Assembly (NCBI GenBank): GCA_028865035.1
Contig: JAGWLB010000001.1
Location: 6,673-70,672, forward strand
From: Patescibacteria group bacterium
GTDB taxonomy: Bacteria; Patescibacteriota; Minisyncoccia; Phycocordibacterales; UBA9973
DNA length: 64,000 nt
Direction: 5' to 3'
In this document: positions 26,861 through 41,302 of the stretch, piece after piece
How the letters are laid out: each line of letters starts with the position of its first letter
Numbering within the stretch: position 1 is the first letter of the stretch
The notes under the pieces: generated by a model
The model's database searches: none
What the model was told of the DNA's origin: nothing
Seen by the model: only the letters and a program-made list of their open reading frames with translations
Made by a program: the position numbers and the translations under genes

Positions 26861-27739
26861 ATGAATAAGTACTTACCAAGCAGACAATTCATAATTAGAG
26901 TCATAGTGATTGCCATAATTATTTCGGTTGCCTTTGGTATCTATAAATTAGTAATTTATTTTAAAAATAAAACAAGCCAAAAAACTTCATTGAAAGTTTT
27001 AGTTAAAGATTTAGTCCAGAAAGATACAAATAATAATGGTATTCCAGATTGGGAAGAATCACTTTGGGGTCTTGATCCGACTACAAATGGCCCTGCAAAC
27101 AAAGAATTTATATTAGCCAAGAGAGCAGCTCTTGCAAAAGATACTACTGTCCCAAAACTTTCTGACGGTATAACTCCATCCAAAGAAAACGAAGCTTTAT
27201 CTCAAGAATTCTTTGCTGTCATTATGTCTCTCCAACAGACTGGCAACTTAGATAGTGCTTCAATGCAATCAGTTGCTGATGCTATAAGTAAAAAAGTAGT
27301 TGCTACACCAATACCTGACATATATACCAAAGATATGGCAGTTATTGAAGACGATGGCACATTACCAATGATAGAATACTATACTGCTTACTTAAATCTA
27401 AATAATAAATATTATAAAGATGATGGTATCGGTACGGAGCTTTCTTTAATTGCCGTAGCATTAAGAGATAAAGACCAAGGAGCCTTAGACCAGGTAGGGA
27501 AAATAGGTGAGGCTTACAAAGCAATGGGTAAAGATCTTATGAAGATACCCGTACCGACAACATTTTTAGCGAATCATTTAGATTTAGCGAATAACTATGA
27601 AAAAATAGGAGAGTCTATCGACGATATGACGAAGATGCTTTCCGATCCAATGGTGGGTATGAGAGCATTTATAAATTACAACAAATACAGCGATGCATTA
27701 GCTAACGATATCAGTTTTCTTTCAGACAATTATAAATAA
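26861..27739 (+). CDS. Hypothetical bitopic membrane protein with a calcium-binding-loop-like motif; first gene of the T4SS-like cluster
   Basis: N-terminal TM; DTNNNGIPDWEE resembles DxDxDGxxDxxE loops. Confidence 0.5.
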   Translation: MNKYLPSRQFIIRVIVIAIIISVAFGIYKLVIYFKNKTSQKTSLKVLVKDLVQKDTNNNGIPDWEESLWGLDPTTNGPANKEFILAKRAALAKDTTVPKLSDGITPSKENEALSQEFFAVIMSLQQTGNLDSASMQSVADAISKKVVATPIPDIYTKDMAVIEDDGTLPMIEYYTAYLNLNNKYYKDDGIGTELSLIAVALRDKDQGALDQVGKIGEAYKAMGKDLMKIPVPTTFLANHLDLANNYEKIGESIDDMTKMLSDPMVGMRAFINYNKYSDALANDISFLSDNYK

Positions 27740-27765
27740 AAATGATATAATATTATTGACTATCT

Positions 27766-29934
27766 ATGAAGGGATTTACTAGAAAAAGAATATTATCGAT
27801 AGTGATAATTACAGCTATGCTTTCTACGCAAGTTGTTTTGCCTTTGCAAGCCAACGCTGGCACATTCTTAAACTATCATAATACAAACCCTTTCCCTGTT
27901 CCTAAATTATCATTAAGAGCCATAACTCCAGGGTTGCTTACATCAGTAGTAAGTTGTACTGGCATTACAAATAAAGCTGCATCAAAATTAATACAATTAC
28001 ACGATGCAATAAAAAAAGAAACCGACAAGCTACTAACTGGCATAAAAACTGATATTAAAAACCTTTTAATGAGTAACGCAAAAAAAATAGCACTTGAGAA
28101 ACAAGTTGCCGCAGTAAAAAGAAAAGCATTAGAAGCACTTGCAGCAACAAATGCAGGAGCGGGTGGCTCTATTTTAGGAGTTAAGGTAGGCGATGTAGTA
28201 CCATCTCTTGTTAATATAGGTATAGACGATTTATCAAAAGCACAAACTATAAACGTAAATGACAATGGTACCCATACAGCTGTTAGTAACACACAAACTA
28301 ATGCTGTGAATATAGCGAGTGCAGCTGATTCTCAACAACAATCAAAAGACTGTTTAAACGGTATTGCAAATGCTCTTATTAAAAGTCAGTTACAAAATAT
28401 GACAGAGCAAACAATGAACTGGGTGAATAGCGGATTTGGTGGCGACCCTATGTATGTGACAGATGTTAACTCGTTTATGAACGGTATAACTGATCAAATT
28501 CTATTGAAAGAAACAAGTTTGTTTAAGAACCCACTAACTAACGGCGACTATCCATACGGTCGCAACTTTGCACAAGGAGCAATTAACGGCAACCAGGCAT
28601 TGAATAATTTCCAGGATTCAATGAAGCAAGATCTTACAAGCTATCTTACTCCTGGGTCTACTCCCCAGACTTTCGCTACTGATTTCTCTCAAGGTGGATG
28701 GGATGGGTGGCTAGCTTTAACACAACATCCACAGAATAACCCGCTAGGTTTTACAATTAATGAAACACAACACATAGCTGATTTACAAAATACTCAGGTA
28801 AAAAATACAACTGATGAGATAAACCGCAACAGTGGCTACCTTGATCAAAAGAAATGTGTCCAGTGGGAGAATCTTGATAAAAGTGGAGAGGGTATACAAA
28901 CCACATCTGACACTGGTAAAAACCAAGATGGAGTCTTAAGGCCTGGCGATGTGACACAGACTGACTTGTGTATCAAATGGCAGACAATAACTCCAGGAAG
29001 TAATATAAAAACTAAAATTGATACTTATGTAAACACTCCTGAGCGTCAGATTGAACTCGCAAGAACTATGGATGATGCTTTGAATGCACTTTTTACAGCT
29101 CTTTTGGGTCAATTCCAAAAACAAGGTTTATACGGATTACAGTCTACTGATAATGCTGGTGTTAATAATGCCAATGGCGGTGGATTTGGTGTTAATCAGG
29201 TTTTTGATAGTAACGGTAACAGTCTGACTCCTATACGAACTTTTAGCGGAAATAGTGGTTTCACTTCTGGAGATGGATTCTTTGACCTCACAAAAGACTT
29301 AGGTAACACTTATAATCCTTTATCTACAACAAGTAATTGGATAATAGATAGCAAAGGCGTCCTACAAATTCAGTACGATTACCTAAACTTATTAAACAAA
29401 TCAAAGACAATTATGGATCAAGTTATGCCTGCTTTAGGAAAGCTTGATTACTGTATCCCAGGACCAAATCCAGATTGGAATAATATTTCTCAAGATGCAA
29501 TAAGTGCTTATATTGACTCAGTGAGTACAGGAACAACAACGCCACCTATCGACTTGGGTACTCTAGATAAAACTCTAGCAGATTACGGAACGCAAATAGA
29601 TAATACATATGGTCCTAATAGTCCTATGCAAAGCGGTGGCACTGGTAATACAAATTATCTAAAAATGTCATCTGAGGGTCTTAATATTACAAAAGATATG
29701 GGAACATATGCTGACACAATATCATCAGCAGAAGGCGACTTCAGTAGCTCACTTGCGGAAGCAAATTCAAATATTGCAAAGCTAAATATTATAAAAGATA
29801 AAGTAAATGCGATAATCATTGCTGCTCAGAAACGCCGTGCTGCTAAGAGAATACAGAGTGGCCTACCAAACGTATCGTCGGCTTGTTTAATATCAGAAAG
29901 AGTAACATATCTGGATAACGGTGTAATTAAATAA
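27766..29934 (+). CDS. Large secreted hypothetical protein (722 aa)
   Basis: Signal peptide MKGFTRKRILSIVIITAMLSTQVVLPLQANA; Gly/Asn/Thr-rich; no known domain. Confidence 0.55.
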   Translation: MKGFTRKRILSIVIITAMLSTQVVLPLQANAGTFLNYHNTNPFPVPKLSLRAITPGLLTSVVSCTGITNKAASKLIQLHDAIKKETDKLLTGIKTDIKNLLMSNAKKIALEKQVAAVKRKALEALAATNAGAGGSILGVKVGDVVPSLVNIGIDDLSKAQTINVNDNGTHTAVSNTQTNAVNIASAADSQQQSKDCLNGIANALIKSQLQNMTEQTMNWVNSGFGGDPMYVTDVNSFMNGITDQILLKETSLFKNPLTNGDYPYGRNFAQGAINGNQALNNFQDSMKQDLTSYLTPGSTPQTFATDFSQGGWDGWLALTQHPQNNPLGFTINETQHIADLQNTQVKNTTDEINRNSGYLDQKKCVQWENLDKSGEGIQTTSDTGKNQDGVLRPGDVTQTDLCIKWQTITPGSNIKTKIDTYVNTPERQIELARTMDDALNALFTALLGQFQKQGLYGLQSTDNAGVNNANGGGFGVNQVFDSNGNSLTPIRTFSGNSGFTSGDGFFDLTKDLGNTYNPLSTTSNWIIDSKGVLQIQYDYLNLLNKSKTIMDQVMPALGKLDYCIPGPNPDWNNISQDAISAYIDSVSTGTTTPPIDLGTLDKTLADYGTQIDNTYGPNSPMQSGGTGNTNYLKMSSEGLNITKDMGTYADTISSAEGDFSSSLAEANSNIAKLNIIKDKVNAIIIAAQKRRAAKRIQSGLPNVSSACLISERVTYLDNGVIK

Positions 29935-29938
29935 TTAT

Positions 29939-30874
29939 ATGGAACATAATAAACCTAAAAAAAGCAAAGCATTCATTATAACTTTTATAGCAGTTATGAT
30001 TCTTCTGCTGGTAGGATATTTTATTTTCTTAAATAGTAATAAACTTTTTGGAACAAAAAATTCGACAAGTATTAGCAAGATTTTTGCACCGCTACTAGGT
30101 ACTTCAAAACAAAAAACACTAAATACTATCGATAATAGTGGTAATACTTCACAAAATTCAAATTCTGCTAACACAAACAATGGTAATACTAATCCGACTA
30201 CTAGTACAAATGGGAATAGTAACACCAACCCAGTAACTGGAATAAGTGACGGTAATACAAATACTAGTAATCAAACTCTTGATGCAAACGGGAATCCTAT
30301 ATCTGTTGGTGGATTAAATGGGTCCAACAATATTGGGTCAGGAAGTCCAGGGAGTATTGATGGTTCTATCGGAGCAAACGGAAATATAAATAACAGCACA
30401 CTTAACTCTACTCCATCATTAAATCCTTTACCTACGCCAGGGAGTAATCCAGCATTAGCTAGCTCGACACCATCTCCGATCTCAACATCTATACCTAGCT
30501 CTACACCTAGTGTTGCATCAGCAACAATATCAACAACAAACGGCAATCTTTGCCCTGTAGATGATCCTTTAGTTTTTACAGATTCAGAGAAAGCTCAGCT
30601 AGATGAATTACTAAAAGAATATTATCTTATCTCTCCTACACTAAAAACTGCTGACGATATATCAGTGTTACAGGATGATATATCTACAAACCAAGCATTA
30701 GTAGATCAAGCAAATCAACTTACAAATGAATGCCAAGCAGAGAAATCGGACCCTAGTTATACTGGCCCTCAGGTTACGAAGAACAATCCTTACTACAGCG
30801 ACCCAAGTAACACTGGAGCTACGCCCTATATACCAACCTACAGTCAACTAGAACAGTTATTTAATATTTGGTAA
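29939..30874 (+). CDS. Bitopic membrane protein with N/T/S/P-rich linker and Cys-containing C-terminal domain
   Basis: TM FIITFIAVMILLLVGYFIFL; ~150-aa low-complexity linker. Confidence 0.5.
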   Translation: MEHNKPKKSKAFIITFIAVMILLLVGYFIFLNSNKLFGTKNSTSISKIFAPLLGTSKQKTLNTIDNSGNTSQNSNSANTNNGNTNPTTSTNGNSNTNPVTGISDGNTNTSNQTLDANGNPISVGGLNGSNNIGSGSPGSIDGSIGANGNINNSTLNSTPSLNPLPTPGSNPALASSTPSPISTSIPSSTPSVASATISTTNGNLCPVDDPLVFTDSEKAQLDELLKEYYLISPTLKTADDISVLQDDISTNQALVDQANQLTNECQAEKSDPSYTGPQVTKNNPYYSDPSNTGATPYIPTYSQLEQLFNIW

Positions 30875-30886
30875 TTATTTATTATT

Positions 30887-33571
30887 GTGAAAAAATTTCT
30901 TCCCACTATATTCATACTTCTAATTATTGCGAATCTTTTCGCTCCTTTTAGTGTGAGTGTTGATAAAAATAATACACCAGTTGTAAAAGCATCTGTAGCT
31001 GAAGCAACGGACACAGTGGGTATTAAAATAAGCGGCCATATTTCTCATACCGATACTAATATAACTCCTTGGTTAACAGTGGTATGGTATTTGGGTGCTG
31101 ATAATAGTAAAGCTTCAGTATTATTACAAAAAGTTGGTTCAACTGATATAACAAAAGCAGATATAGATATGAAGACAGATGATGCTGCTACGCAGGCTTA
31201 TGATGCTAGCCACAACGGAGATCCATTACCTTATACAGTACAAACAGGTAATATTCCTTTATCAGTATTACCAAACACAACATATAATGTAACATTAGTT
31301 GCAACTCAAAATCTTACATTTTGGGGTCATCCTCTTTCGACTGTTTATAATGGTCTAACAGCTGGAAGTAATCACGATGCTGCATATTTATTGTTTACAA
31401 TCACTACCAATAATCAAGGAGATATAACAAAAGTAGACAGTGGTTTAAAAAATAGTTTAAGCATAGATGCGTACATGCCACCATGTAGTATTGTAGGTGG
31501 AAATGGAACAATAGCTGGTTGTGCAGCGCAACTTTTATATTACGTATTGTTTATTCCTACTTCTTACATATTTGCTCTAACAGGGCAAATGTTTGATTTT
31601 ACATTTTTCTATTCTGTAAAAGATACTTCATATCAATCTCCTTTTGTGTTAAATGGTTGGGGGATAATTCGTGATTTCTGTAATATGTTCTTTATATTCG
31701 TATTGTTGTATATCGCTTTTGCTACAATATTAGATATTCACGGATTTAAAACTAAAGAGATGATAATCAATGTAATTATTATTGGTTTACTCATAAACTT
31801 TAGCCTCTTCGCTGCTCAGCTTATTATTGATTCTTCAAATATTCTGGCTAGAGTATTCTACTCTGATCAAAGTGTTAAAATTACTCAAGGTGGGGCAAAT
31901 GGAGTAACAAACAATACCCCAAAATTGAAAGTTGGGCCAAATGGTGAACTACCATTATCTGCTGCGATAGTAAACAAAGTTAATCCTCAAAATTTAATAA
32001 TAAACGGAGTAAATAACGTAGGGGTAGACGATCCTGTTAGTAACAGCAACAGCATAAGTAACACAACCATAGGTGGAAGCAGTTTAAATGCTGGGGGATT
32101 CATTTTAATAGTGTTACTTGCGGTTGCGGTGAACGTGGTGGGAATAATAGTATTCGTATCTGTAAGTATGATATTTATAACAAGAGTAATTGGATTATGG
32201 ATGGCTATGGTATTTGCGCCCCTTGCATTCTTCTCTTATGCGGTACCAAAAATGAAAAGCATAGATATGATTGGTTGGGAAAAATGGTGGCCTGAGACTA
32301 TTAAGCTTGCGTTCCTTGCTCCAGTGTTTATGTTCTTCTTGTATCTCATTATTCAATTCTTAGATACAGGACTTAGCCTTATTAATATACAAGGTCAAAA
32401 CAACATAGCTTTTATAGTAGCAACGGTTGTTCCTTTTGCTTTTATTATGATATTACTCTGGAAAGCAAAAAGTATTGCTAGTGAGATGTCTGGTAAACTC
32501 GGCCAGACCATTACTGGAGGTATTGCAACAATTGGAGGACTTGCACTTGGCGGAGCAGCATTAGGTGTTGCCTTTTCAGGAAGAAAAATTATTGGGGAAA
32601 GAATAGCCGCTAGATCAAGGACAGCAGATTCTATTCATTACGGTAAAGAAAAAATTGCATTTAATAAAAAACTGGAGGATTGGGAAAAGAATGGTAAAAA
32701 AGGAGATAAACCTAAATGGAAAGATCATGCAAAAGCAAATAATGTTAAAACTAATCTTCTCACTAAACTTGGTGGTAATTTAAATGCAAAACAAACAAAA
32801 ATAAATGAGGTGGATCATGCTCGACATGAAATTGATACTATAAAAGATAAGGCGGGATTAAAAGGTGTTAATGACGATAATCTTTCAGGTGTAGATAAAC
32901 AAAAACTAGCTACAACATTTGCAAAAGAAAAGAAGACAGAAATAGAATCTGAAATAAGAAGAGGTACTAAACCTTTATTAGATGAAAATGGTAAAGAAGT
33001 TAAAGATGCAAACAATGAAGTTATAACGGGAGGTGAAAGTGGTTTCAAAGCTGCAAATAGAGATAGGGTCACAAAAGAAATCAGAGATGCAAGTAGTGAT
33101 AATATTCATACTGATGGAGGACTTACGGACGCAGCAAAGAAAAAAGTTGAAGATCAATTAAATGTACAATTTAATGCTATATTAAAAACTTCTACAGACA
33201 AAGAAACGGAAAAAAGATTTAATCATCTACAAGAAGAGTCTAAACAAAAAGTTGGTGGATTTGATAGAGTCTTTGCTCAATCAAATAAAGGTAGTTATGA
33301 TGTCAGAAATCTATCTCAAACAAAAGTAGATAAAAGAGAGAGAGCATTCACAAAGATGAGTGCTGGCTTAATAGCTGGTATTGCTATGGGGGTAAGAACT
33401 GGGCTTAAGCATAGTAATGTTAACCACGGATCTGGCCAAGGTGACTTCTTAAAAGATATAGGGAATACAATAACAGAGGCTCTTAAGAGTACAAAACTAA
33501 AAGTAGAAATTGAAAAAAGTCATGGAACTAGTGGTGGGGATGCTCATACCACAGGTGGTGGACATCATTAA
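30887..33571 (+). CDS. Giant polytopic membrane protein, VirB6/TrbL/PrgH-like (GTG start)
   Basis: Signal peptide, ~230-aa extracytoplasmic domain, at least 6 TM helices, and a ~330-aa charged cytoplasmic tail. The call rests on architecture and synteny next to PrgI/VirB4 homologs, not on motifs. Confidence 0.45.
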   Translation: MKKFLPTIFILLIIANLFAPFSVSVDKNNTPVVKASVAEATDTVGIKISGHISHTDTNITPWLTVVWYLGADNSKASVLLQKVGSTDITKADIDMKTDDAATQAYDASHNGDPLPYTVQTGNIPLSVLPNTTYNVTLVATQNLTFWGHPLSTVYNGLTAGSNHDAAYLLFTITTNNQGDITKVDSGLKNSLSIDAYMPPCSIVGGNGTIAGCAAQLLYYVLFIPTSYIFALTGQMFDFTFFYSVKDTSYQSPFVLNGWGIIRDFCNMFFIFVLLYIAFATILDIHGFKTKEMIINVIIIGLLINFSLFAAQLIIDSSNILARVFYSDQSVKITQGGANGVTNNTPKLKVGPNGELPLSAAIVNKVNPQNLIINGVNNVGVDDPVSNSNSISNTTIGGSSLNAGGFILIVLLAVAVNVVGIIVFVSVSMIFITRVIGLWMAMVFAPLAFFSYAVPKMKSIDMIGWEKWWPETIKLAFLAPVFMFFLYLIIQFLDTGLSLINIQGQNNIAFIVATVVPFAFIMILLWKAKSIASEMSGKLGQTITGGIATIGGLALGGAALGVAFSGRKIIGERIAARSRTADSIHYGKEKIAFNKKLEDWEKNGKKGDKPKWKDHAKANNVKTNLLTKLGGNLNAKQTKINEVDHARHEIDTIKDKAGLKGVNDDNLSGVDKQKLATTFAKEKKTEIESEIRRGTKPLLDENGKEVKDANNEVITGGESGFKAANRDRVTKEIRDASSDNIHTDGGLTDAAKKKVEDQLNVQFNAILKTSTDKETEKRFNHLQEESKQKVGGFDRVFAQSNKGSYDVRNLSQTKVDKRERAFTKMSAGLIAGIAMGVRTGLKHSNVNHGSGQGDFLKDIGNTITEALKSTKLKVEIEKSHGTSGGDAHTTGGGHH

Positions 33572-33581
33572 TATATAAATT

Positions 33582-34601
33582 ATGGATCAAACACAATTAC
33601 AACAGCAAATATCCTTATATTTCTCAAAGTTACCAACAAATGTTCAACAAGTATTTTCTAGTATGACTTGGATGGAAACCTTGAAAGAAATTAGTATTAA
33701 GTTCGGTCTTAATAATGATCAGATAGAAACACTAGGCACAGAGACGACTTTAGTACTACTTGGAATTGTTAGCATAACAGACTATGAACAGACTCTTGCT
33801 AAAGAAATAAATATGCCGCATATAACTTTAGAGAAAATGTTTATGGAAATAAACAATTCAATATTAAAGCCTATTAGCTCATCTCTAGATCAAACTTATA
33901 ATGAACATGTTGAGTCATTGATTGAAGAAAAGTATGGTGGTTTAGAAAAGCTTGATGAACGTTTCACTAAGCTTCCCAAAGAAGTTCAAGAAGCTATTAC
34001 TGAATCAGATTATCAATCTACTCTATATAGTATAGGAAGCAAATATAAACTTTCTGTTAGTCAGATGGGAGATCTAGAAGAGGTTACCAATGGTGTGCTT
34101 CTAGGTATTATTCATCCAGATAAATACGAAGATGAAATCAAATCAAAGTTAAGCTTGCCAGCAGATAAAACGACTGAGCTTGTAAATGAAATAAATGAAA
34201 ATATTCTTAAAAATATCCGTGAAATATTAAAGTCTCACTGGGGCAAACAAGAAGAGAATTTAAGTAATACAGACGATGAAGTTCCATTACCACCATACGC
34301 TAAAAGCGATATTGTAAAAGAAAGTTCCACGCCTGTTAGTATAACTACACCGATAAAAGAATCTATACCGGTTCCATCGCCTAATACGCAGGTGGAAATA
34401 AGCAAAGATGAAAGTACTGTGGATAAAGGGAAAATAGAAAAAGATATTTTTAGTAGTAAGTTAAGTGGCCCGACAGTAAGCAGGCCTGTTATTAGCGACC
34501 ATTCTTTACCTGAAAACAGTATTAAAAAAACGATAACTTCTTCGGGGAAAACAGATTTGGACAAACCAAGACCCGACCCTTATCACGAACCTATAGAATA
34601 G
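33582..34601 (+). CDS. Soluble protein with two tandem ~85-aa repeats and a disordered S/P/T-rich tail
   Basis: Repeat 1 starts LPTNVQQVF...VLLGIVSITDYEQ...EINNSILKPI; repeat 2 starts LPKEVQEAI...VLLGIIHPDKYED...EINENILKNI. Confidence 0.5.
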   Translation: MDQTQLQQQISLYFSKLPTNVQQVFSSMTWMETLKEISIKFGLNNDQIETLGTETTLVLLGIVSITDYEQTLAKEINMPHITLEKMFMEINNSILKPISSSLDQTYNEHVESLIEEKYGGLEKLDERFTKLPKEVQEAITESDYQSTLYSIGSKYKLSVSQMGDLEEVTNGVLLGIIHPDKYEDEIKSKLSLPADKTTELVNEINENILKNIREILKSHWGKQEENLSNTDDEVPLPPYAKSDIVKESSTPVSITTPIKESIPVPSPNTQVEISKDESTVDKGKIEKDIFSSKLSGPTVSRPVISDHSLPENSIKKTITSSGKTDLDKPRPDPYHEPIE

Positions 34602-34620
34602 TTTGTGATACAATATAAGT

Positions 34621-35028
34621 ATGCAATTTAAAGTCCCACAATTTATCGACATTGAAGATAAACTCTTTGGACCTTTTACTTTTCGTCAGTTTGCATATAT
34701 GGCAGGGGGAGTAAGTATGATATTTGTTATTTATAAATTATTACCACTTTGGATCGGTATTTTTCTAATAATACCAGTTGGAATCCTAACTGGCCTCTTA
34801 ACCTTTTATAAGATAAATGATAAACCATTTATCTATTACTTACAGGCTGCTGTAAATTATGCTATATCAAGCAAGCTTTATATCTGGAAGCAGCGCTTAG
34901 TAAAACCAAGCGATAAAAAGGATGGTGCAGAAACAGCTCCTGAAACAACTTCGATTGTACCTATGACATCGACAAGTACTTTAAAAGATTTGGCTTGGAG
35001 TCTGGATGTACAAGAGAAAGAACAGTAA
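34621..35028 (+). CDS. PrgI/VirB3-like small T4SS membrane protein
   Basis: KVPQFIDIEDKLFGPFTFRQFAYMAGG followed by two TM helices, as in PrgI and Tn916 Orf17-type proteins; sits immediately upstream of VirB4. Confidence 0.55.
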   Translation: MQFKVPQFIDIEDKLFGPFTFRQFAYMAGGVSMIFVIYKLLPLWIGIFLIIPVGILTGLLTFYKINDKPFIYYLQAAVNYAISSKLYIWKQRLVKPSDKKDGAETAPETTSIVPMTSTSTLKDLAWSLDVQEKEQ

Positions 35029-35133
35029 TTAGGAATTAATAATTACGAATAAAAGAAGAAAATGCTATAATTTGAGTATAATTATTTAATTACGTTATCT
35101 GATTAATAATTATTAACTCATAATTAATTTCAT

Positions 35134-35787
35134 ATGGCTATAAATGCTCGCGCTGCACAAGATTTTGTGCCAATAAAAGAAGTTCGTAATGGTGTCATCA
35201 TTCTTAAAGATGGTGGTCTTCGAGCTGTTCTTATAGCTTCGTCTATAAACCTGTCATTGAAGTCTTCTGAGGAGCAAACTGCTATTATTAATCAGTTTCA
35301 AGCATTTTTAAATGGCTTAGATTTCTCTACACAGATTGTTGTGCAATCTCGTAGGCTCGATATCAGGCCGTATCTTTTAATGCTTGAAGCTCGAGAAAAA
35401 GAACAAACGGAAAAACTACTTAAAATACAAACAAGGGAGTATATGGAATTCATACGTTCTTTTACAGATGAAGTGAATATTATGACTAAGACATTTTTTG
35501 TTGTTGTGCCTTATAGTCAGACAATCTTAAAATCAAATAATGGAATGATAGATAAATTACTAGGATCTACAACACCTAAAAAGCAAATAGAGAACACCAA
35601 AAAGGCTATGGATATGGCAGATTTTGAAGAAAAACGTAGTCAGTTAGATGAGCGTGTAAGCGTTATTATTTCAGGACTTGGTGGTCTCGGTATACGTAGC
35701 TCTCAATTAAAAACAGAAGAAGTGGTTGAACTTTTTTATAAAACATTTAATCCTGGTGATATCAGTCAGGGGATTAAACTACAATAA
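35134..35787 (+). CDS. VirB4/TraC-family N-terminal domain, encoded as a separate ORF
   Basis: FVPIKEVRNGVIILKDGGLRAVLIASSINLSLKSSEEQTAIINQFQAFLN resembles the N-terminus of Gram-positive VirB4 proteins; stop codon lies 1 nt before the next ATG. Confidence 0.6.
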   Translation: MAINARAAQDFVPIKEVRNGVIILKDGGLRAVLIASSINLSLKSSEEQTAIINQFQAFLNGLDFSTQIVVQSRRLDIRPYLLMLEAREKEQTEKLLKIQTREYMEFIRSFTDEVNIMTKTFFVVVPYSQTILKSNNGMIDKLLGSTTPKKQIENTKKAMDMADFEEKRSQLDERVSVIISGLGGLGIRSSQLKTEEVVELFYKTFNPGDISQGIKLQ

Positions 35788-35788
35788 T

Positions 35789-37651
35789 ATGGGAATTATT
35801 TCATCAATATTTGGTAGTAAGGGAGATAAGAATAGTACTAATCCAAAAAGTACAGTTATGCCTGTGATTCCTACGGAGATTTATAGAGCAGCAACTCTAG
35901 AACTTCAAGATATTATCGCACCTTCTGCTTTACAAATAACTCCGAAAGGTTTAAATCTTGGTGATAAAATTGTTAGAACTTTTTTTGTTATATCTTACCC
36001 TAGATATCTGACAGACAATTGGTTTTCTCCAATTATTAATCTGGATAAAGTTTTTGATGTATCAATTTTTATACATCCGATAGATACTTCTGAAATACTT
36101 CGTTCATTCCAGAAAAAAGTTGCTGAGGTTCAGAGTCAGATTTCTATTCGTGAATCTAAAGGGTTAGTTCGTGATCCAATGCTAGATACCGCTTATCGTG
36201 ATCTTGAAAGTTTGCGTGATAATTTAATGCAGGCTCAAGAGAAAATGTTTGATGTTGGTTTATATATTACAATCTATGCTGATAATGAAAACGATCTGTT
36301 TAAAATTGAAAGTGAAATAAAGTCTCTTCTTGAGTCTAAGCTTATCTATTTAAAACCAGCATTGTTCCAGCAAGACGAAGCTTTTAAGAGTGTTATTCCT
36401 CTTGGGACAGATATATTAGCCGTTCACCAGAAGCTCAACACTGAACCTCTTTCAAGTCTTTTCCCATTTGTATCGTTTGATCTCACGTCGGATAAAGGTA
36501 TTTTGTATGGTGTTAATCGTCACAACTCAAGTCTTATCATCTTTGATAGATTTTCATTACCAAACTATAATTCTATAACTTTTGCGACTTCTGGTGCTGG
36601 TAAATCTTACGCGACTAAACTTGAGATTATACGTACTTTGATGTTTGATACTGAAGTAATAGTCATAGACCCTGAAAGGGAATATGAATATTTGTCCGAA
36701 GCTGTAGGTGGGAGATATTTTAATATTGCACTTTCTTCAGATCACCATATTAATCCTTTTGATTTACCAATACCAACATCAGACGAAACTCCTGCTGATG
36801 TTTTGCGCGCCAATACTATAAACCTGGTTGGATTATTCCGTATAATGCTCGGCGGTCTTACTCCGGAAGAAGATTCTATAATAGACAGAGCAATAACCGA
36901 AACTTATGCTTTGAAAGATATTACTGCTGAGTCAAACTTTGCAAATATAGAACCTCCTCTTCTAATGGATTTTGAAATGGTTTTAGTTGGAATGGATGGA
37001 AGTGAGTCTCTGATTCAACGCTTAGCTAAGTTCACTCACGGTTCTTGGGCTTCTTTCTTGAATCAACCATCAAACGTAGATATTAACCGTAAATTCGTTG
37101 TCTTTTCTGTGCGTGATATGGAAGATGAATTAAAACCAGTAGCAATGTACATAGTCACTCATTATATATGGAATGCAATTCGTAAAAACATAAAAAAACG
37201 TTTACTTGTTGTCGATGAAGCTTGGTGGATGATGAAATCAGAAGACACTGCTTCTTTCTTATATTCTATAGCGAAACGTGGACGAAAATACTATTTAGGT
37301 CTTGCCACTATCACTCAAGATGTCGGAGACTTTATGAAAAGTCCATATGGTGTGCCGATAGTTACAAACTCATCTATCCAGTTATTATTAAAGCAATCTC
37401 CTTCGACTATAGATATTCTACAGAAAACCTTTAATCTTACCGATGAAGAAAAATACTTACTCTTAGAAGCTAATGTGGGCGAGGGAATCTTCTTTGCGGG
37501 ACTCAAACACGTGGCCGTCAAAACCATAGCTTCATATACAGAGGATCAAATAATTACTTCTGACCCATCTCAGATTTTAGCTATTAAAAAAGCAAAGGAT
37601 GATTTAGTAGAACAAGAAGCCAATCAAGATAAAAATCAGGCTAGTATTTAG
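35789..37651 (+). CDS. VirB4-like T4SS ATPase (ATPase domain)
   Basis: Walker A FATSGAGKSYATKLEI; Walker B LLVVDEAWWMM; TraC/VirB4 family organisation. Confidence 0.8.
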   Translation: MGIISSIFGSKGDKNSTNPKSTVMPVIPTEIYRAATLELQDIIAPSALQITPKGLNLGDKIVRTFFVISYPRYLTDNWFSPIINLDKVFDVSIFIHPIDTSEILRSFQKKVAEVQSQISIRESKGLVRDPMLDTAYRDLESLRDNLMQAQEKMFDVGLYITIYADNENDLFKIESEIKSLLESKLIYLKPALFQQDEAFKSVIPLGTDILAVHQKLNTEPLSSLFPFVSFDLTSDKGILYGVNRHNSSLIIFDRFSLPNYNSITFATSGAGKSYATKLEIIRTLMFDTEVIVIDPEREYEYLSEAVGGRYFNIALSSDHHINPFDLPIPTSDETPADVLRANTINLVGLFRIMLGGLTPEEDSIIDRAITETYALKDITAESNFANIEPPLLMDFEMVLVGMDGSESLIQRLAKFTHGSWASFLNQPSNVDINRKFVVFSVRDMEDELKPVAMYIVTHYIWNAIRKNIKKRLLVVDEAWWMMKSEDTASFLYSIAKRGRKYYLGLATITQDVGDFMKSPYGVPIVTNSSIQLLLKQSPSTIDILQKTFNLTDEEKYLLLEANVGEGIFFAGLKHVAVKTIASYTEDQIITSDPSQILAIKKAKDDLVEQEANQDKNQASI

Positions 37652-37690
37652 GTTGGCAAGCTCTTGTAGTTATCATATAATATATAGGTA

Positions 37691-38680
37691 ATGCATTCTC
37701 ATAAAAAATTTCTTTTTGGAATATTGTTAATACTTTGTATCGTTTCTATACCTAGTTATAGTAAGGCTATCGACGGTATTGGTTTGCAGGAATCTGACAT
37801 TACAGCAAGCACACAGCCAGAAAACCCTGAGCCTTATCAAGATGTAACCATAAGTCTTGTTAGTTATGCTACAGACCTAAACAAAGCCACTATCGAGTGG
37901 CGCAGTGGATCAAAAGTTTTACTATCGGGTATTGGTCGTACAAACTTCTCTATAAAAGCTCCGGGCCCAAATGTGACGGCAGTTTATACTGCTACAATAA
38001 CTCCAGTAGGAGACACAAACAGTATTACAAAACAAATTATAATTAGTCCATCAGACATAGAAGTGTTATGGGAATCTGTAGACGGGTACACCCCTCCTTT
38101 TTATAAAGGTAAATCTTTTGCATCACCAGAAAGCCTTATAAAAGTTGTAGCTATACCTGACACAAGCGCTGTGAAATCTAGTAGTAATCTAGTATATACT
38201 TGGAAAAATAATGGTAAAACAATACAAAGTGCTTCTGGTTATGGTAAGGACTCTTATATATTTGCAAATAATGAATTAAACAGAAGTGAAGAGATTACGG
38301 TATCTGCCTCAACAGTAGATGGATCATATAATGCAACAAAGACAATAAACATACCGATAATTGATCCAAAAATTGTTTTTTATAAAAGATCACCTACCGA
38401 TGGAGTTTTGTACAATAGTGCATTAGTAAATGATGTATTTATGTCTGGGGACGAGTTTACCATTGTTGCCACACCATACTTTCTTGCTACTTTAGGTAAT
38501 GAGGATAAATTTACTTATAGCTGGCAAATAAATGGTAATAGTATAAGTACTCCTTCAAAGAAAACAGAGTTAACGGTCCGACCAAGCTCTCGTGGAGGAT
38601 ATGCAACAATAGGCGTTACAATGGAAAACTTAAACACATTTTTCCAAAAAGTTACTGGCCAATTAAAAATAAACTTATAA
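37691..38680 (+). CDS. Secreted hypothetical protein (beta-rich)
   Basis: Signal peptide MHSHKKFLFGILLILCIVSIPSYSKA. Confidence 0.5.
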   Translation: MHSHKKFLFGILLILCIVSIPSYSKAIDGIGLQESDITASTQPENPEPYQDVTISLVSYATDLNKATIEWRSGSKVLLSGIGRTNFSIKAPGPNVTAVYTATITPVGDTNSITKQIIISPSDIEVLWESVDGYTPPFYKGKSFASPESLIKVVAIPDTSAVKSSSNLVYTWKNNGKTIQSASGYGKDSYIFANNELNRSEEITVSASTVDGSYNATKTINIPIIDPKIVFYKRSPTDGVLYNSALVNDVFMSGDEFTIVATPYFLATLGNEDKFTYSWQINGNSISTPSKKTELTVRPSSRGGYATIGVTMENLNTFFQKVTGQLKINL

Positions 38681-38681
38681 T

Positions 38682-39977
38682 ATGAAAAAAACTTTATCTA
38701 TCTTTATATTAATAACTACATTGCTTTCATTTAGTAGTAAGGTTTCAGCTGATAACTCTATCACTTTGTATGTTTCTCAAAGTGATTCAACTGCTACAAT
38801 TACAGCTAAATATTTAGGCGCAGATAACTGTAGTGGAGATATTCTTGTTACCGACAACAAAAATCCGCCAATTTATAGTAAACTTTCTCCTATTTCATTT
38901 ACTGCTGGTACCCAATCTGCTACAGTTGAATTAACAGGTCTTACTAAAGGAGAAACATATAACGCTATGGCTAATTGTTCAGGTTCATTAGCAAAAGCCA
39001 CGTCTCAAGTATCTACTTTTACTTTCGGCTCTATATCACCTGATAACAACGCTCCATACGACGTAAGCCCACAAAAATATGACAATTCTGTTGATACTTA
39101 TAATCTTTTAGCTCCTATAGGTGGTTTAAAAAGTATCACAACAAATGGTGGGACTTGCCCAATAGACCCTAAAATGGCAGGTGGTATTGGTTGTTATCTT
39201 AATATTATTTTCAAAATTGGTATTGGTCTTGCTGGAGCGTTATCTGTCATAATGATTGTTATAGGTGGTGTGCAATATATGGGTAATGAATCAATTTTTG
39301 GTAAAAATGAGGCAAAAAGTAAAATAATGTCAGCAATTTTAGGCCTCCTTATAGCTCTTGGTGCTTTTGCCCTCTTAAATACTATTAATCCTGATCTGAC
39401 GGGGGCGAAAGGGGTACAAATAGATCAGGTCAGCGCAGAGATAGATGAAGCACCAATACTATCAGATGCAAATACTTCAGTGCCGTCGGGAACAACAAAC
39501 AGTTTTGCGGATTGCCCAGGTGGAGTAAGAAAAGTAGGTACTACTGGTGGAAATTTTATATTCTGCTCAGCTTATGCAAGTAAATTACAACAAATGTTTT
39601 CAGATGCATATCATGCTAATCCTAGTATATTTTTATCTGGAGGAGGATTTAGGACTCATGATTCACAAATAGCATTGAGAAATAAAAATTGTCCCGATCC
39701 AAAGTTAACAGTTCCTTCATCGTCTTGCCATCCACCAACAGCAAGACCAGGAACGTCAAATCATGAACAAGGTCTTGCTGTTGATTTGACTTGTGATGGT
39801 GAATTAATAAATTGGCAAACAAACAAAAGTGCTCATGATTACCAACCTAAATTTCCGATTAATCAAAAAACAAAAAAGTGTTTTGACTGGTTAGCGTCTA
39901 ATGCTGGTAATTATGGATTTAAAAATTTATCATCAGAAAATTGGCATTGGTCAACAGGTCCTAATGCTGGTAGATAA
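38682..39977 (+). CDS. Secreted protein with VirB2/TrbC-pilin-like hydrophobic hairpin fused to a VanY/LAS-type zinc peptidase domain
   Basis: Signal peptide; paired hydrophobic helices IGIGLAGALSVIMIVIGGVQYM...IMSAILGLLIALGAFALL; C-terminal SNHEQGLAVD (SxHxxGxAxD) and ENWH (ExxH) motifs of VanY/M15 peptidases. Confidence 0.6.
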   Translation: MKKTLSIFILITTLLSFSSKVSADNSITLYVSQSDSTATITAKYLGADNCSGDILVTDNKNPPIYSKLSPISFTAGTQSATVELTGLTKGETYNAMANCSGSLAKATSQVSTFTFGSISPDNNAPYDVSPQKYDNSVDTYNLLAPIGGLKSITTNGGTCPIDPKMAGGIGCYLNIIFKIGIGLAGALSVIMIVIGGVQYMGNESIFGKNEAKSKIMSAILGLLIALGAFALLNTINPDLTGAKGVQIDQVSAEIDEAPILSDANTSVPSGTTNSFADCPGGVRKVGTTGGNFIFCSAYASKLQQMFSDAYHANPSIFLSGGGFRTHDSQIALRNKNCPDPKLTVPSSSCHPPTARPGTSNHEQGLAVDLTCDGELINWQTNKSAHDYQPKFPINQKTKKCFDWLASNAGNYGFKNLSSENWHWSTGPNAGR

Positions 39978-39982
39978 TATTT

Positions 39983-41302
39983 ATGCCTAAAAAAACAAAA
40001 ATCATTTTCATAATTGTATTTATACTAGTTGGATCTATTATGCTTGGTTTTTATTTCTATGTTAGTAAAAAAAATACATCTGGTACAAACAGTGGCTCAA
40101 ATAATGCATACCAACCTTTCTTAGGAGGGAACACAACACCACAAGGAGGAAATGGTAATAGTACTAGTAGTAATAATACGAGTGGTACGCAAACAAATAC
40201 CCCTATCGATAGCCAGGTTGCTCCACAAGCTTCTAAATTCCATCAGATAACAAATATATCAGTTGCAGGGGCGGCTTACTTGGAGGACACTCGTAAAGTG
40301 CAGACAACAGGGGTCGCTTTACCTGGTGGTTTAACCCAACCAACAAGTACCACGAAAACAACAACTAAAGTAGCAGCACCGAGAGTCGAAACTGTTCCTT
40401 CTGTAAGATATGTTGAGCGTGCTACTGGATACATAGATGAAATGTATTTAGATACAAAAGTTTCAGGAGAAATATCGAACTCTACAATACCTAGTATATA
40501 TAGAGCATTTTTTGGTAATGATGCAAATAGTGTTATTTATCAGTATCTTTCACCGGACACGGGTGATACAATAAACAGCTTTATGGCAACCCTTGGTGGT
40601 AGCAAAGGAGAATTTCTTCCATCTAATGTTATAAACATTAGTCTTTCTCCTGATAAAAGTAAGTTTTTTTATCTTGTAAAAACTTCAAGTGGTGTGAATG
40701 GTATAGTGAGGTCATTTGGTGATACTAAAGCTTCACAAGTTTTCAGTTCTCGTTATAGTGAATGGCTATCTCAGTGGGTAACAAAAGATAAAGTATTTTT
40801 AACAACAAAAGCTTCGTCTGCTGTAGATGGTAGTGTATTTAGTTTGAATATTATAAGCGGTATATCGACTAAAATATTTGGTAGTGTGAAAGGTTTAACA
40901 ACTTTAGCAAACAATGACGGATCTCTTATTTTGTATAGTACTTCAGATTCGTCAGTTCCTCAATTAAAAATATTCAACACAAAAAACCGTACGACCTTTG
41001 ATTTAAATACACCAGGATTAGCAGAGAAATGTATTTGGAGTGCAGATAATATAAACATTTATTGTGCTATACCAAGTAATATAATAGGTGGAGACTATCC
41101 GGATTCTTGGTATCAAGGATTAGTATCTTTTAATGATCGTTTTGCAAAAATAAACTCAATCACTGGTGATCAGATAGATATTGCAGATTCTACAAATGAA
41201 ATAGCTGTAGATGCTACTAAATTATTCTTAAACAAAGATGAGAGTCAGCTATTTTTCATAAACAAAAAGGACTCCACGCTATGGAGTCTAGACTTGAACT
41301 AA
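39983..41302 (+). CDS. Bitopic membrane protein with predicted beta-propeller-like ectodomain
   Basis: N-terminal TM, N/T/S/G-rich linker, beta-strand-rich C-terminal 300 aa; last gene of the cluster. Confidence 0.5.
   Translation: MPKKTKIIFIIVFILVGSIMLGFYFYVSKKNTSGTNSGSNNAYQPFLGGNTTPQGGNGNSTSSNNTSGTQTNTPIDSQVAPQASKFHQITNISVAGAAYLEDTRKVQTTGVALPGGLTQPTSTTKTTTKVAAPRVETVPSVRYVERATGYIDEMYLDTKVSGEISNSTIPSIYRAFFGNDANSVIYQYLSPDTGDTINSFMATLGGSKGEFLPSNVINISLSPDKSKFFYLVKTSSGVNGIVRSFGDTKASQVFSSRYSEWLSQWVTKDKVFLTTKASSAVDGSVFSLNIISGISTKIFGSVKGLTTLANNDGSLILYSTSDSSVPQLKIFNTKNRTTFDLNTPGLAEKCIWSADNINIYCAIPSNIIGGDYPDSWYQGLVSFNDRFAKINSITGDQIDIADSTNEIAVDATKLFLNKDESQLFFINKKDSTLWSLDLN

Follow-up and report, generated by a model that had tools for sequence, protein, structure and literature searches.

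A pilin-like hairpin and a predicted VanY-type wall peptidase joined in one protein of a Patescibacteria type IV secretion operon

Introduction

Type IV secretion systems (T4SSs) of Patescibacteria are related to the monoderm MPF-FATA conjugation systems, are often encoded near dnaA and have VirB2-like pilins (PMC12102498), and a 2025 review describes them as the only monoderm T4SSs with VirB2-like subunits (PMC12857230). In Southlakia epibionticum, the pilins of the Pfam family T4SS_pilin (PF18895) are small, stand-alone and arrayed, and the lysozyme-like and M15B/M23-like proteins are encoded by separate genes (PMC10633639, Table S2). In Patescibacteria, surveys have counted VirB2-like pilins beside virB4, VirB1 is mostly not detected and its homologues are rarely linked to virB4 (PMC12102498), and the role of the Patescibacteria T4SS has been described as 'completely unknown' (PMC11665869). 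Here, we describe a T4SS locus in which one gene encodes both a pilin-like membrane hairpin and a predicted VanY/M15B peptidase. The gene is located at 38682–39977 on the + strand of a 64,000-nucleotide (nt) stretch of a Patescibacteria group bacterium (GenBank assembly GCA_028865035.1, contig JAGWLB010000001.1, positions 6,673 to 70,672), which has a G+C content of 29–40% and is referred to as the window. Its product is a protein of 431 amino acids (aa), hereafter the fusion protein.

A substantial fraction of bacterial diversity consists of Patescibacteria, which grow attached to other microorganisms. In S. epibionticum, the only species in which this has been examined, the T4SS is essential (PMC10633639). 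In Paceibacteria, the largest class, a VirB2-like pilin and a putative wall enzyme are one protein. The T4SS itself is already known, the individual domains are ordinary and the protein family is common in databases; new is that the only pilin-like gene of the locus, which encodes a widespread and probably essential system, carries a wall enzyme, and that this enzyme is a hypervariable cassette. No pilin-hydrolase fusion, and no VanY or M15 protein in a Patescibacteria T4SS context, was found in the open-access full-text literature, including the supplements of PMC12102498. The fusion would give the field a defined extracellular machine part with a testable biochemical activity, as well as a precedent for VirB2-type pilins with cargo domains.

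The hairpin and its relation to T4SS pilins

The VirB2, TrbC and TraA pilins and the PF18895 pilins of Saccharimonadia consist of a signal peptide followed by two long helices connected by a short basic loop, and the fusion protein shares this layout together with matches to PF18895 and to TrbC/VirB2 (PF04956). An initial annotation, made by a model from the letters of the window alone, had likened two hydrophobic helices of the protein to T4SS pilin subunits, and searches with hidden Markov models (HMMs) bear this out for the family, while the copy in the window stays below the thresholds. Here, PF18895 matches residues 173–234 with a score of 15.2 bits when the full-length protein is searched and of 18.5 bits (E=0.0021) for the isolated hairpin segment, both below the threshold of 26.6, and the NCBIfam model NF045849 ('Mbov_0395 pilin-like conjugal transfer protein') matches residues 168–235 below its cut-off (E=1.5e-4). 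When orthologous hairpin segments were scanned alone, PF18895 matched 15 of 15 (best 6.9e-10) and PF04956 13 of 15 (best 7.9e-5). In addition, PF18895 is found in 81 of the 104 cluster representatives whose hairpins are closest, with 53.6 bits in one of them, P0121. At the family level, the hairpin is thus assigned by these profiles to the T4SS_pilin/TrbC (VirB2) families, the window sequence itself being sub-threshold.

A profile of the hairpin compared with 1.84 billion proteins retrieved 23,667 cluster representatives at E<=1e-3, of which 7,763 reached E<=1e-10; the same profile had no match among PDB sequences. At E<=1e-3, more than 1000 homologues of the full-length protein were retrieved, and all those with a named source are Patescibacteria (Paceibacterota, Nomurabacteria and similar), where they are named 'D-alanyl-D-alanine carboxypeptidase family protein', 'M15 family metallopeptidase' or, at JGI, 'VirB2 component (pilin)'. 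Within the family, pairwise identity is 0.69 in helix 1, 0.78 in the loop and 0.70 in helix 2, compared with 0.47 in the enzyme, 0.28 in the linker and 0.20 in the N-terminal region. Because the hairpin is the best-conserved part of the protein and occurs by itself in this slot in four species, it is probably more than a passive anchor.

The gene also has a fixed place. A scan with the hairpin profile, using one genome per species, gave at least 271 relatives, the best 80 of which, each from a different genome, form the species loci considered below. VirB4 is encoded upstream of the hairpin gene in all 69 loci whose upstream flank is 3.2 kb or longer, and jag/yidC downstream in all 70 with enough downstream sequence, making the hairpin gene a fixed member of the oriC-proximal Paceibacteria T4SS operon. 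As for the PF18895 pilin arrays of Saccharimonadia (Southlakia SEML1_0014-0019; PMC10633639, PMC12102498), the hairpin is thus encoded together with VirB4 and PrgI. No other pilin-like open reading frame (ORF) was detected in the 64-kb window, either with the narrow HMM or with one broadened by divergent hairpin repeats, and the broadened profile found one such ORF in 82 of 86 loci and two in the other four.

Several features set the fusion protein apart from described pilins. Classical pilins are ~70–150 aa long, whereas the fusion protein, a putative pilin, has 431 aa with folded domains on both termini: unlike a small hairpin-only pilin, it has an immunoglobulin (Ig)-like domain before the hairpin and a 154-aa enzyme after it. 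The pilins of Saccharimonadia occur in arrays of 2–11, in contrast to the single copy of the fusion gene per locus. A further relative is the Mbov_0395 pilin-like protein of the Mycoplasma integrative and conjugative element (ICE), which accompanies the Mbov_0397 VirB4, and both VirB4 halves of the window match the corresponding Mycoplasma model. The two systems are monoderm-type T4SSs with a two-helix pilin-like protein, yet Mbov_0395 is an 80-aa stand-alone hairpin, in mycoplasmas that lack a wall, and has no fused enzyme.

Tandem hairpins were also observed: P0122 (1775 aa) has 17, P0222 (L004 1361-3217) has four followed by SLT, and P0121 has two and then a lysozyme-like domain. The motif Y/F-x-L-(L/E)-x-P-L stands before every repeat, and these proteins may be polytopic or may be polyprotein precursors.

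The VanY/M15B peptidase domain

The C-terminal domain (aa 278–431; 39513–39974) is modelled as a compact fold with predicted local distance difference test (pLDDT) scores of 92–98. Like the VanY/LdcB (DacB, YodJ) M15B carboxypeptidases, it has the SxHxxGxAxD and ExxH signatures, an Arg, a Zn triad and a catalytic Glu. The Pfam family VanY (PF02557) matches residues 298–424 with 39.0 bits (gathering threshold 25; E=8.2e-10), confirming the C-terminal VanY/M15 (LAS) domain with both signatures that the initial annotation had proposed. The predicted Zn ligands are H361 (39762–39764), D368 (39783–39785) and H422 (39945–39947), and the predicted catalytic residue is E419 (39936–39938), accompanied by the conserved R324. 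These residues, as well as S359, G364, A366 and the six Cys of the enzyme domain, are invariant in 118 aligned homologues. When the family profile was compared with PDB sequences, the closest matches were VanY-B 5hnm (also 5zhf, VanY-type; 2.8e-13), YodJ/LdcB 4ox3 (1.7e-12) and LdcB 4ox5 (3.8e-9), followed more weakly by the Listeria phage endopeptidase Ply500 (2vo9; 3.6e-4). These matches are well outside what chance would give; the fusion protein thus belongs to the VanY/M15B family proper, and it is predicted from its residues to be catalytically competent. It differs from VanY and LdcB in its six conserved Cys, its position behind a pilin hairpin and its location in a T4SS operon.

Exchange of the C-terminal domain

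The VanY domain is one of several enzymes found behind the hairpin. Among the 104 representatives with the closest hairpins, the partners are SLT (14), SLT_2 (3), NlpC/P60 (13), VanY (11), YkuD (10), Amidase_2 (4), M15_4 (2), Amidase_5 (1) and CHAP (1), with TIG at some N-termini. The 80 species loci contain 84 hairpin ORFs, 21 of which carry VanY. In the 56 non-VanY hairpin ORFs whose C-terminal domain is 100 aa or longer, NlpC/P60 was found in 10, SLT, SLT_2 and SLT_3 in 6, 5 and 2 (counts that may overlap), Amidase_5 in 5 (overlapping NlpC/P60), YkuD in 4, and Amidase_2 and M15_4 in 2 each. About 25 of the non-VanY C-terminal domains had no Pfam match, and several of these show SLT-like ESGG...GLFQ motifs by eye. 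By all-against-all BLAST, the C-terminal domains fall into at least 10 unrelated groups.

Individual pairs illustrate how sharply the exchange is delimited. P0065 (M15_4) and P0075 (Amidase_2) share 76% identity up to residue 380, and from there on they are unrelated. Likewise, L023 and L038 share 92.9% identity in p329, the gene directly upstream, and 84% in the hairpin, yet their N- and C-terminal domains are unrelated, L023 having TIG and VanY and L038 a Cys-rich N-terminal domain and NlpC/P60. The C-terminal enzyme swaps are therefore recent, and the hairpin is the invariant component, to which the enzyme is an accessory that is nearly always present. By combining one conserved hairpin with more than 10 types of head, the family represents a natural experiment that could decide between an action on the own wall and on the wall of a host.

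A conserved delivery part joined to non-homologous, swappable C-terminal domains is a feature of polymorphic toxins. Yet, no co-varying immunity gene was found downstream, where a conserved p439 orthologue follows in 74 of the 80 loci with any enzyme type, and a classical polymorphic toxin was rejected for this reason.

Two of the Pfam-unmatched groups have features of their own. C-terminal group 2 (L014 6394-6807; nine species) is Cys-rich with an invariant H..G....D and H-x-H, a pattern that may hint at LAS peptidases, and group 4 (L024 6379-6882; six species) has an invariant RTNNPGNIGN motif. Neither had a Pfam or PDB sequence match, and profiles of two unassigned C-terminal groups, A5 and A6, had no match among PDB sequences.

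Possible functions of the fusion protein

VirB1 of Agrobacterium, PrgK of pCF10, TraG of pIP501, CwlT of ICEBs1 and TcpG of pCW3 are likewise encoded in T4SS clusters, extracytoplasmic, membrane-tethered and directed at peptidoglycan. We see about an even chance that the fusion protein is a VirB2-family subunit of the Paceibacteria T4SS that carries its own wall enzyme in place of a separate VirB1/PrgK-type hydrolase. Following Sec export and cleavage of the signal peptide, the two helices would reside in the membrane with the two ectodomains outside. The hairpin may then dock into, or assemble with, the T4SS (PrgI/VirB3-like, VirB4 and VirB6-like proteins), placing a tethered stem-peptide peptidase where the apparatus crosses the peptidoglycan. 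There, the enzyme would trim or cut peptidoglycan peptides locally, as VirB1/PrgK/CwlT-type hydrolases do elsewhere, with the type of enzyme being interchangeable and the hairpin presumably not.

Several comparative observations support such a role in the organism's own wall, which we consider plausible and the most likely single mechanism. The same slot and hairpin elsewhere carry SLT, SLT_2, NlpC/P60, Amidase_2, M15_4, CHAP and YkuD, and the canonical T4SS hydrolase domains (SLT, NlpC/P60 and amidase) among these alternative heads favor a VirB1-like function. SLT, NlpC/P60 or CHAP domains are found in VirB1, PrgK, TraG, CwlT and TcpG and also in the fusion slot of sister species. On contig L004, a hairpin-NlpC/P60 protein is followed by the protein with four tandem hairpins and SLT, and this pairing of both CwlT/PrgK-type activities in one locus adds further support. 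Moreover, the organism makes its own wall, as seen from a class A penicillin-binding protein (PBP) gene nearby, and no separate VirB1 is detectable; Pfam and NCBIfam scans identified no other wall-enzyme family in the T4SS locus of the window. The likeness has limits, as the enzyme of the window is of the VanY/M15B type only, outside the canonical SLT/lysozyme and CHAP-NlpC/P60 set. In addition, the protein is tethered by a VirB2-type hairpin instead of one helix at the N-terminus, and the enzyme is exchanged and sometimes absent. The fusion is hence an analogue, not a homologue, of VirB1, PrgK and CwlT.

A number of results weigh against this reading. With the hairpin alone, Foldseek was non-specific, with no match at E<1 and the conjugative pilin 8dft at rank 12 (E=2.6), and helical hairpins are generic. 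The nearest solved relatives of the enzyme are the DD-/LD-carboxypeptidases VanY-B and LdcB, which trim free stem peptides and do not alone open the sacculus, whereas the lytic relative Ply500 is only a weaker match, and the YkuD variants, which have an L,D-transpeptidase fold, are not classical hydrolases. Four species have a hairpin-only protein (174–311 aa) in the slot with the p439 orthologue directly after it (L063 5542-6477; L070 5911-6564; L072 5869-6393; L078 5818-6399); L026, which had appeared to be another such case, was excluded as an N-masked artefact. The N- and C-terminal domains are exchanged between genomes in which the neighboring gene is 87–93% identical. At less than 90% p329 identity, the C-terminal group is shared at a frequency of 0.13–0.26 compared with ~0.17 at random, that is, the type is nearly uncorrelated with relatedness. 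A housekeeping function in the own wall does not predict such rapid domain exchange, and given this fast exchange of the ectodomains, a host-directed or surface-exposed role is a serious alternative to remodelling of the own wall.

According to this alternative, to which we give clearly less than an even chance, the hairpin polymerizes into, or caps, a T4SS pilus or conduit, and the Ig-like adhesin and the wall enzyme act on the wall of a host or prey. The opened wall would admit T4SS cargo, and the heads would follow the wall chemistry of the host or allow escape from its defences. Comparable combinations of a conserved delivery module with interchangeable, rapidly exchanged peptidoglycan-active domains are known from phage virion-associated lysins, the type VI secretion system (T6SS) effectors Tae, Tge and Tlde1, and the X-Tfe effectors of the Xanthomonas T4SS, whose NlpC/P60, lysozyme/SLT, amidase, M15 and YkuD-fold domains resemble the heads of the fusion. 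The fusion differs from these in lacking an adjacent immunity gene and in having as its delivery module a membrane pilin hairpin instead of a secretion signal or a tail protein, and its transfer into another cell is hypothetical. F-type pilus structures place the two ends of VirB2-type pilins on the outer surface of the filament, in line with such a display of the ectodomains. The fast swapping of both ectodomains next to a near-identical hairpin and near-identical flanking genes suggests that the selection comes from outside the cell. The presence of at least 10 non-homologous C-terminal groups in one slot, the TIG/Ig-like N-terminal domains, the two different hairpin-enzyme genes in some genomes and the status of the hairpin gene as the sole pilin-like gene of the locus are likewise consistent with a host-directed function, as is the T4SS of the candidate phyla radiation (CPR) being essential for epibiotic growth in a role described as unknown (PMC10633639, PMC11665869).

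Against a host-directed function stands the conserved p439, which follows the enzyme throughout where a co-varying immunity gene would be expected. A load of ~30 kDa per subunit would be sterically hard to accommodate in a VirB2-type helical filament, and a pilus of the Paceibacteria T4SS is itself putative. The most frequent type of head, the VanY-like one, has its nearest relatives among non-lytic carboxypeptidases, and phages or antagonists recognizing any exposed protein could equally drive diversifying selection. It could be speculated, with more doubt than confidence, that the VirB2-like hairpin is a building block or the tip of the conduit, and that the Ig-like binder and the wall enzyme form a cassette-switchable 'drill head' at the host wall. 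If true, a T4SS pilin would serve as its own adhesin and lysin, mechanistically nearer to a phage tail tip than to the described T4SSs.

An unlikely third explanation, compatible with action on either wall, is that the protein is a polyprotein precursor, in which cleavage at the junction after helix 2 frees the wall enzyme and a small mature pilin, the fusion only ensuring co-expression and co-localization. C-terminal processing is known for the TrbC and VirB2 pilins, and the proteins with 2, 4 and 17 tandem hairpins resemble pilins joined end to end. The conserved junction (LNTINPDL.G..G..IDQVSAEI), which marks the end of homology in swaps and the end of the hairpin-only proteins, would fit a cleavage site. 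Yet, no protease gene is visible in the locus, and the junction motif past 'QV' is not conserved across partner types.

Finally, a housekeeping membrane-anchored DD-/LD-carboxypeptidase located near the T4SS by chance, with the hairpin as a generic double-pass anchor, would agree with the public annotation as a D-alanyl-D-alanine carboxypeptidase or M15 metallopeptidase, the nearby class A PBP gene and the closest solved relatives VanY and LdcB, but is highly improbable and essentially excluded by synteny and domain swapping, since the best-conserved part is the hairpin, a pilin-family member, the slot is fixed in the T4SS operon in 69 of 69 loci, and the enzyme is swapped for non-homologous ones or lost while the hairpin stays, which is incompatible with a specific housekeeping carboxypeptidase.

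Domain organization and topology

The organization of the fusion protein was determined from an alignment with 117 homologues (118 sequences) and an AlphaFold2 model with a mean pLDDT of 82. Hydropathy analysis identified only three hydrophobic stretches, the signal peptide at residues 5–23 and segments at 169–201 and 213–237, and AlphaFold2 predicted long helices at 169–201 and 205–234 with pLDDT of 88–95. The two closely spaced hydrophobic helices described in the initial annotation were thereby recovered, as were its four quoted strings: IGIGLAGALSVIMIVIGGVQYM at aa 179–200, IMSAILGLLIALGAFALL at aa 215–232, SNHEQGLAVD at aa 359–368 and ENWH at aa 419–422. A single re-entrant signal anchor lacking similarity to VirB2 had also been considered, and was rejected, as two separate, conserved helices are modelled confidently and the two-helix hairpin matches the T4SS_pilin/TrbC families.

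All parts of the gene are given on the + strand. The predicted Sec signal peptide (aa 1–23; 38682–38750), MKKTLSIFILITTLLSFSSKVSA, is followed by DN, and its cleavage site was deduced from the hydrophobic residues 5–23 and the V-S-A thereafter. It is followed by a variable Ig/Fn3-like beta-sandwich (aa 24–116; 38751–39029; C50 and C99), with AlphaFold2 strands at residues 26–114 and Foldseek matches to Ig/Fn3-like domains at E ~2e-4. Across homologues, this N-terminal ectodomain ranges from 10 to 469 aa with ~20% pairwise identity, and it has unrelated replacements in close relatives. A Foldseek search of the full model against PDB and viral structures gave Ig/Fn3-like matches to the N-terminal domain only, and nothing on the enzyme or hairpin. 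A disordered spacer leads to the pre-helix part of the hairpin module (aa 138–168; 39093–39185), in which Y140 and L143 of the YxLLAPIG motif are invariant in the 118-sequence alignment; the motif also precedes each of the several hairpins of P0121 and P0222. The ectodomain of ~170 aa initially proposed does follow the signal peptide, but is in fact composed of the Ig-like sandwich (~24–116), the disordered spacer and the YxLLAPIG motif belonging to the hairpin module.

Helix 1 (aa 169–201; 39186–39284), which carries the PF18895/TrbC matches, is predicted from hydropathy and the model (pLDDT ~90) to pass from the outside to the inside. The short loop NESIFGKNEAK (aa 202–212; 39285–39317), predicted to be cytoplasmic, has nearly invariant K208 and K212, and its 78% pairwise identity is the maximum of the protein. 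Helix 2 (aa 213–234; 39318–39383), part of the modelled helix 205–234, would return to the outside. It is followed by the post-helix junction INPDLTG..GVQIDQVSAEI, which is 66% identical, and a flexible linker of ~40 residues, which is 28% identical (together aa 235–277; 39384–39512; pLDDT 59–67).

The junction at 39384–39431 (aa 235–250; INPDLTG..GVQIDQVSAEI) coincides with the end of homology in domain-swapped relatives and with the end of the hairpin-only proteins, and may represent a joint of recombination or, alternatively, a site of processing. Its 'SAEI' may resemble the site at which RP4 TrbC is processed C-terminally.

Cleavage of the signal peptide and two passes through the membrane would put both folded domains outside, so the Ig-like domain and the VanY enzyme are predicted to be extracellular and the basic loop cytoplasmic. 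This topology is that of VirB2-type prepilins. Nine of the 10 Cys are located in predicted outside parts, and the last, C171, is at the outer end of helix 1. By position, the Cys form sets of 2 + 2 + 6 in the Ig-like domain, the region of the pre-helix and the start of helix 1, and the enzyme, with C159 pairing by count with C171, and these even numbers would fit disulfide pairs.

The gene model

The fusion ORF was present as initially annotated, starting with ATG at 38682 and encoding 431 aa followed by a stop, and is covered over 100% by P0009 and P0011. The public NCBI model (P0001) has 336 aa and starts at M96, so that the signal peptide and the greater part of the Ig-like domain are missing from it; the part outside that model is 38682–38966. 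The 431-aa ORF is preferred because of its signal peptide and the homologues covering 100% of the long form. The gene is tightly packed, with its ATG 1 nt past the upstream stop and the next gene beginning 5 nt downstream. An artefact of gene fusion or assembly was rejected, as more than 1000 homologues share the architecture and the VanY form is found in 21 species-level genomes.

The T4SS operon and its neighbors

The fusion gene is part of an operon-like run of + strand genes at 26861–41302, bounded upstream by uvrD/pcrA and ksgA and followed downstream by jag, yidC, yidD and rnpA on the opposite strand, and then by dnaA, dnaN and the class A PBP gene. Within the run, an 894-aa polytopic membrane protein (30887–33571, +) may take the position of a VirB6-like channel, based on its location and the Southlakia annotation (PMC10633639, Table S2). 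It had no Pfam or NCBIfam match and was recovered wherever the flank reached, that is, in 17 of the 80 loci (6-kb flank) and in the four loci with 10-kb flanks. Further along the operon is a small PrgI-family (VirB3-like) membrane protein (34621–35028, +; PrgI PF12666 E=5e-9), syntenic in 67 related loci.

VirB4 is encoded in two parts. The N-part is a separate, TrsD/TraC-like ORF of 217 aa (35134–35787, +; NCBIfam VirB4_plasma 1.3e-10, TrsD 7.8e-8), whose orthologues match PF26593 TraC-like, and the second ORF encodes the VirB4-type T4SS ATPase of 620 aa (35789–37651, +; conju_CD1110 5e-111, 372 bits, above the cut-off; P-loop_TraG 1.8e-24), with the ATG read from the sequence. The two ORFs are 1 nt apart, and VirB4 is likewise divided in 68 of the 80 loci and in the four long contigs examined. 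The ATPase of 76 species (L007-L086) has a median identity of 88.6% to the window copy, compared with ~70% for YidC and Jag and 47% for RnpA in the same loci; the secretion ATPase is thus more conserved than core housekeeping proteins.

Between VirB4 and the fusion gene lies p329 (37691–38680, +), which encodes a secreted protein without a significant Pfam or NCBIfam match, ends 1 nt before the fusion ATG and has an orthologue in 77 of the 80 loci. The initial annotation had placed the fusion gene next to VirB4; the two do share an operon but are separated by this one gene. Five nt past the fusion gene follows p439 (39983–41302, +), encoding an N-terminally anchored, probably beta-propeller protein. 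The order PrgI, VirB4-N, VirB4, p329, hairpin gene and p439, then jag, yidC and rnpA on the opposite strand, is fixed, and is common to the window and the long contigs L001, L003, L005 and L006.

Orthologues of p439 contain PG_binding_1 in L001 (11257-12768) and show faint beta-propeller matches in L004, and L005 encodes a PG_binding_1 protein upstream, which suggests that more wall-binding parts belong to the Paceibacteria T4SS. A small PF05635 (23S_rRNA_IVP) gene, not present in the window, is located between the p339 orthologue and PrgI in L001 (5121-5471) and L005 (5412-5804). In L001 and L002, an 84-aa GIY-YIG gene is inserted between the VirB4 halves (L001 6056-8827).

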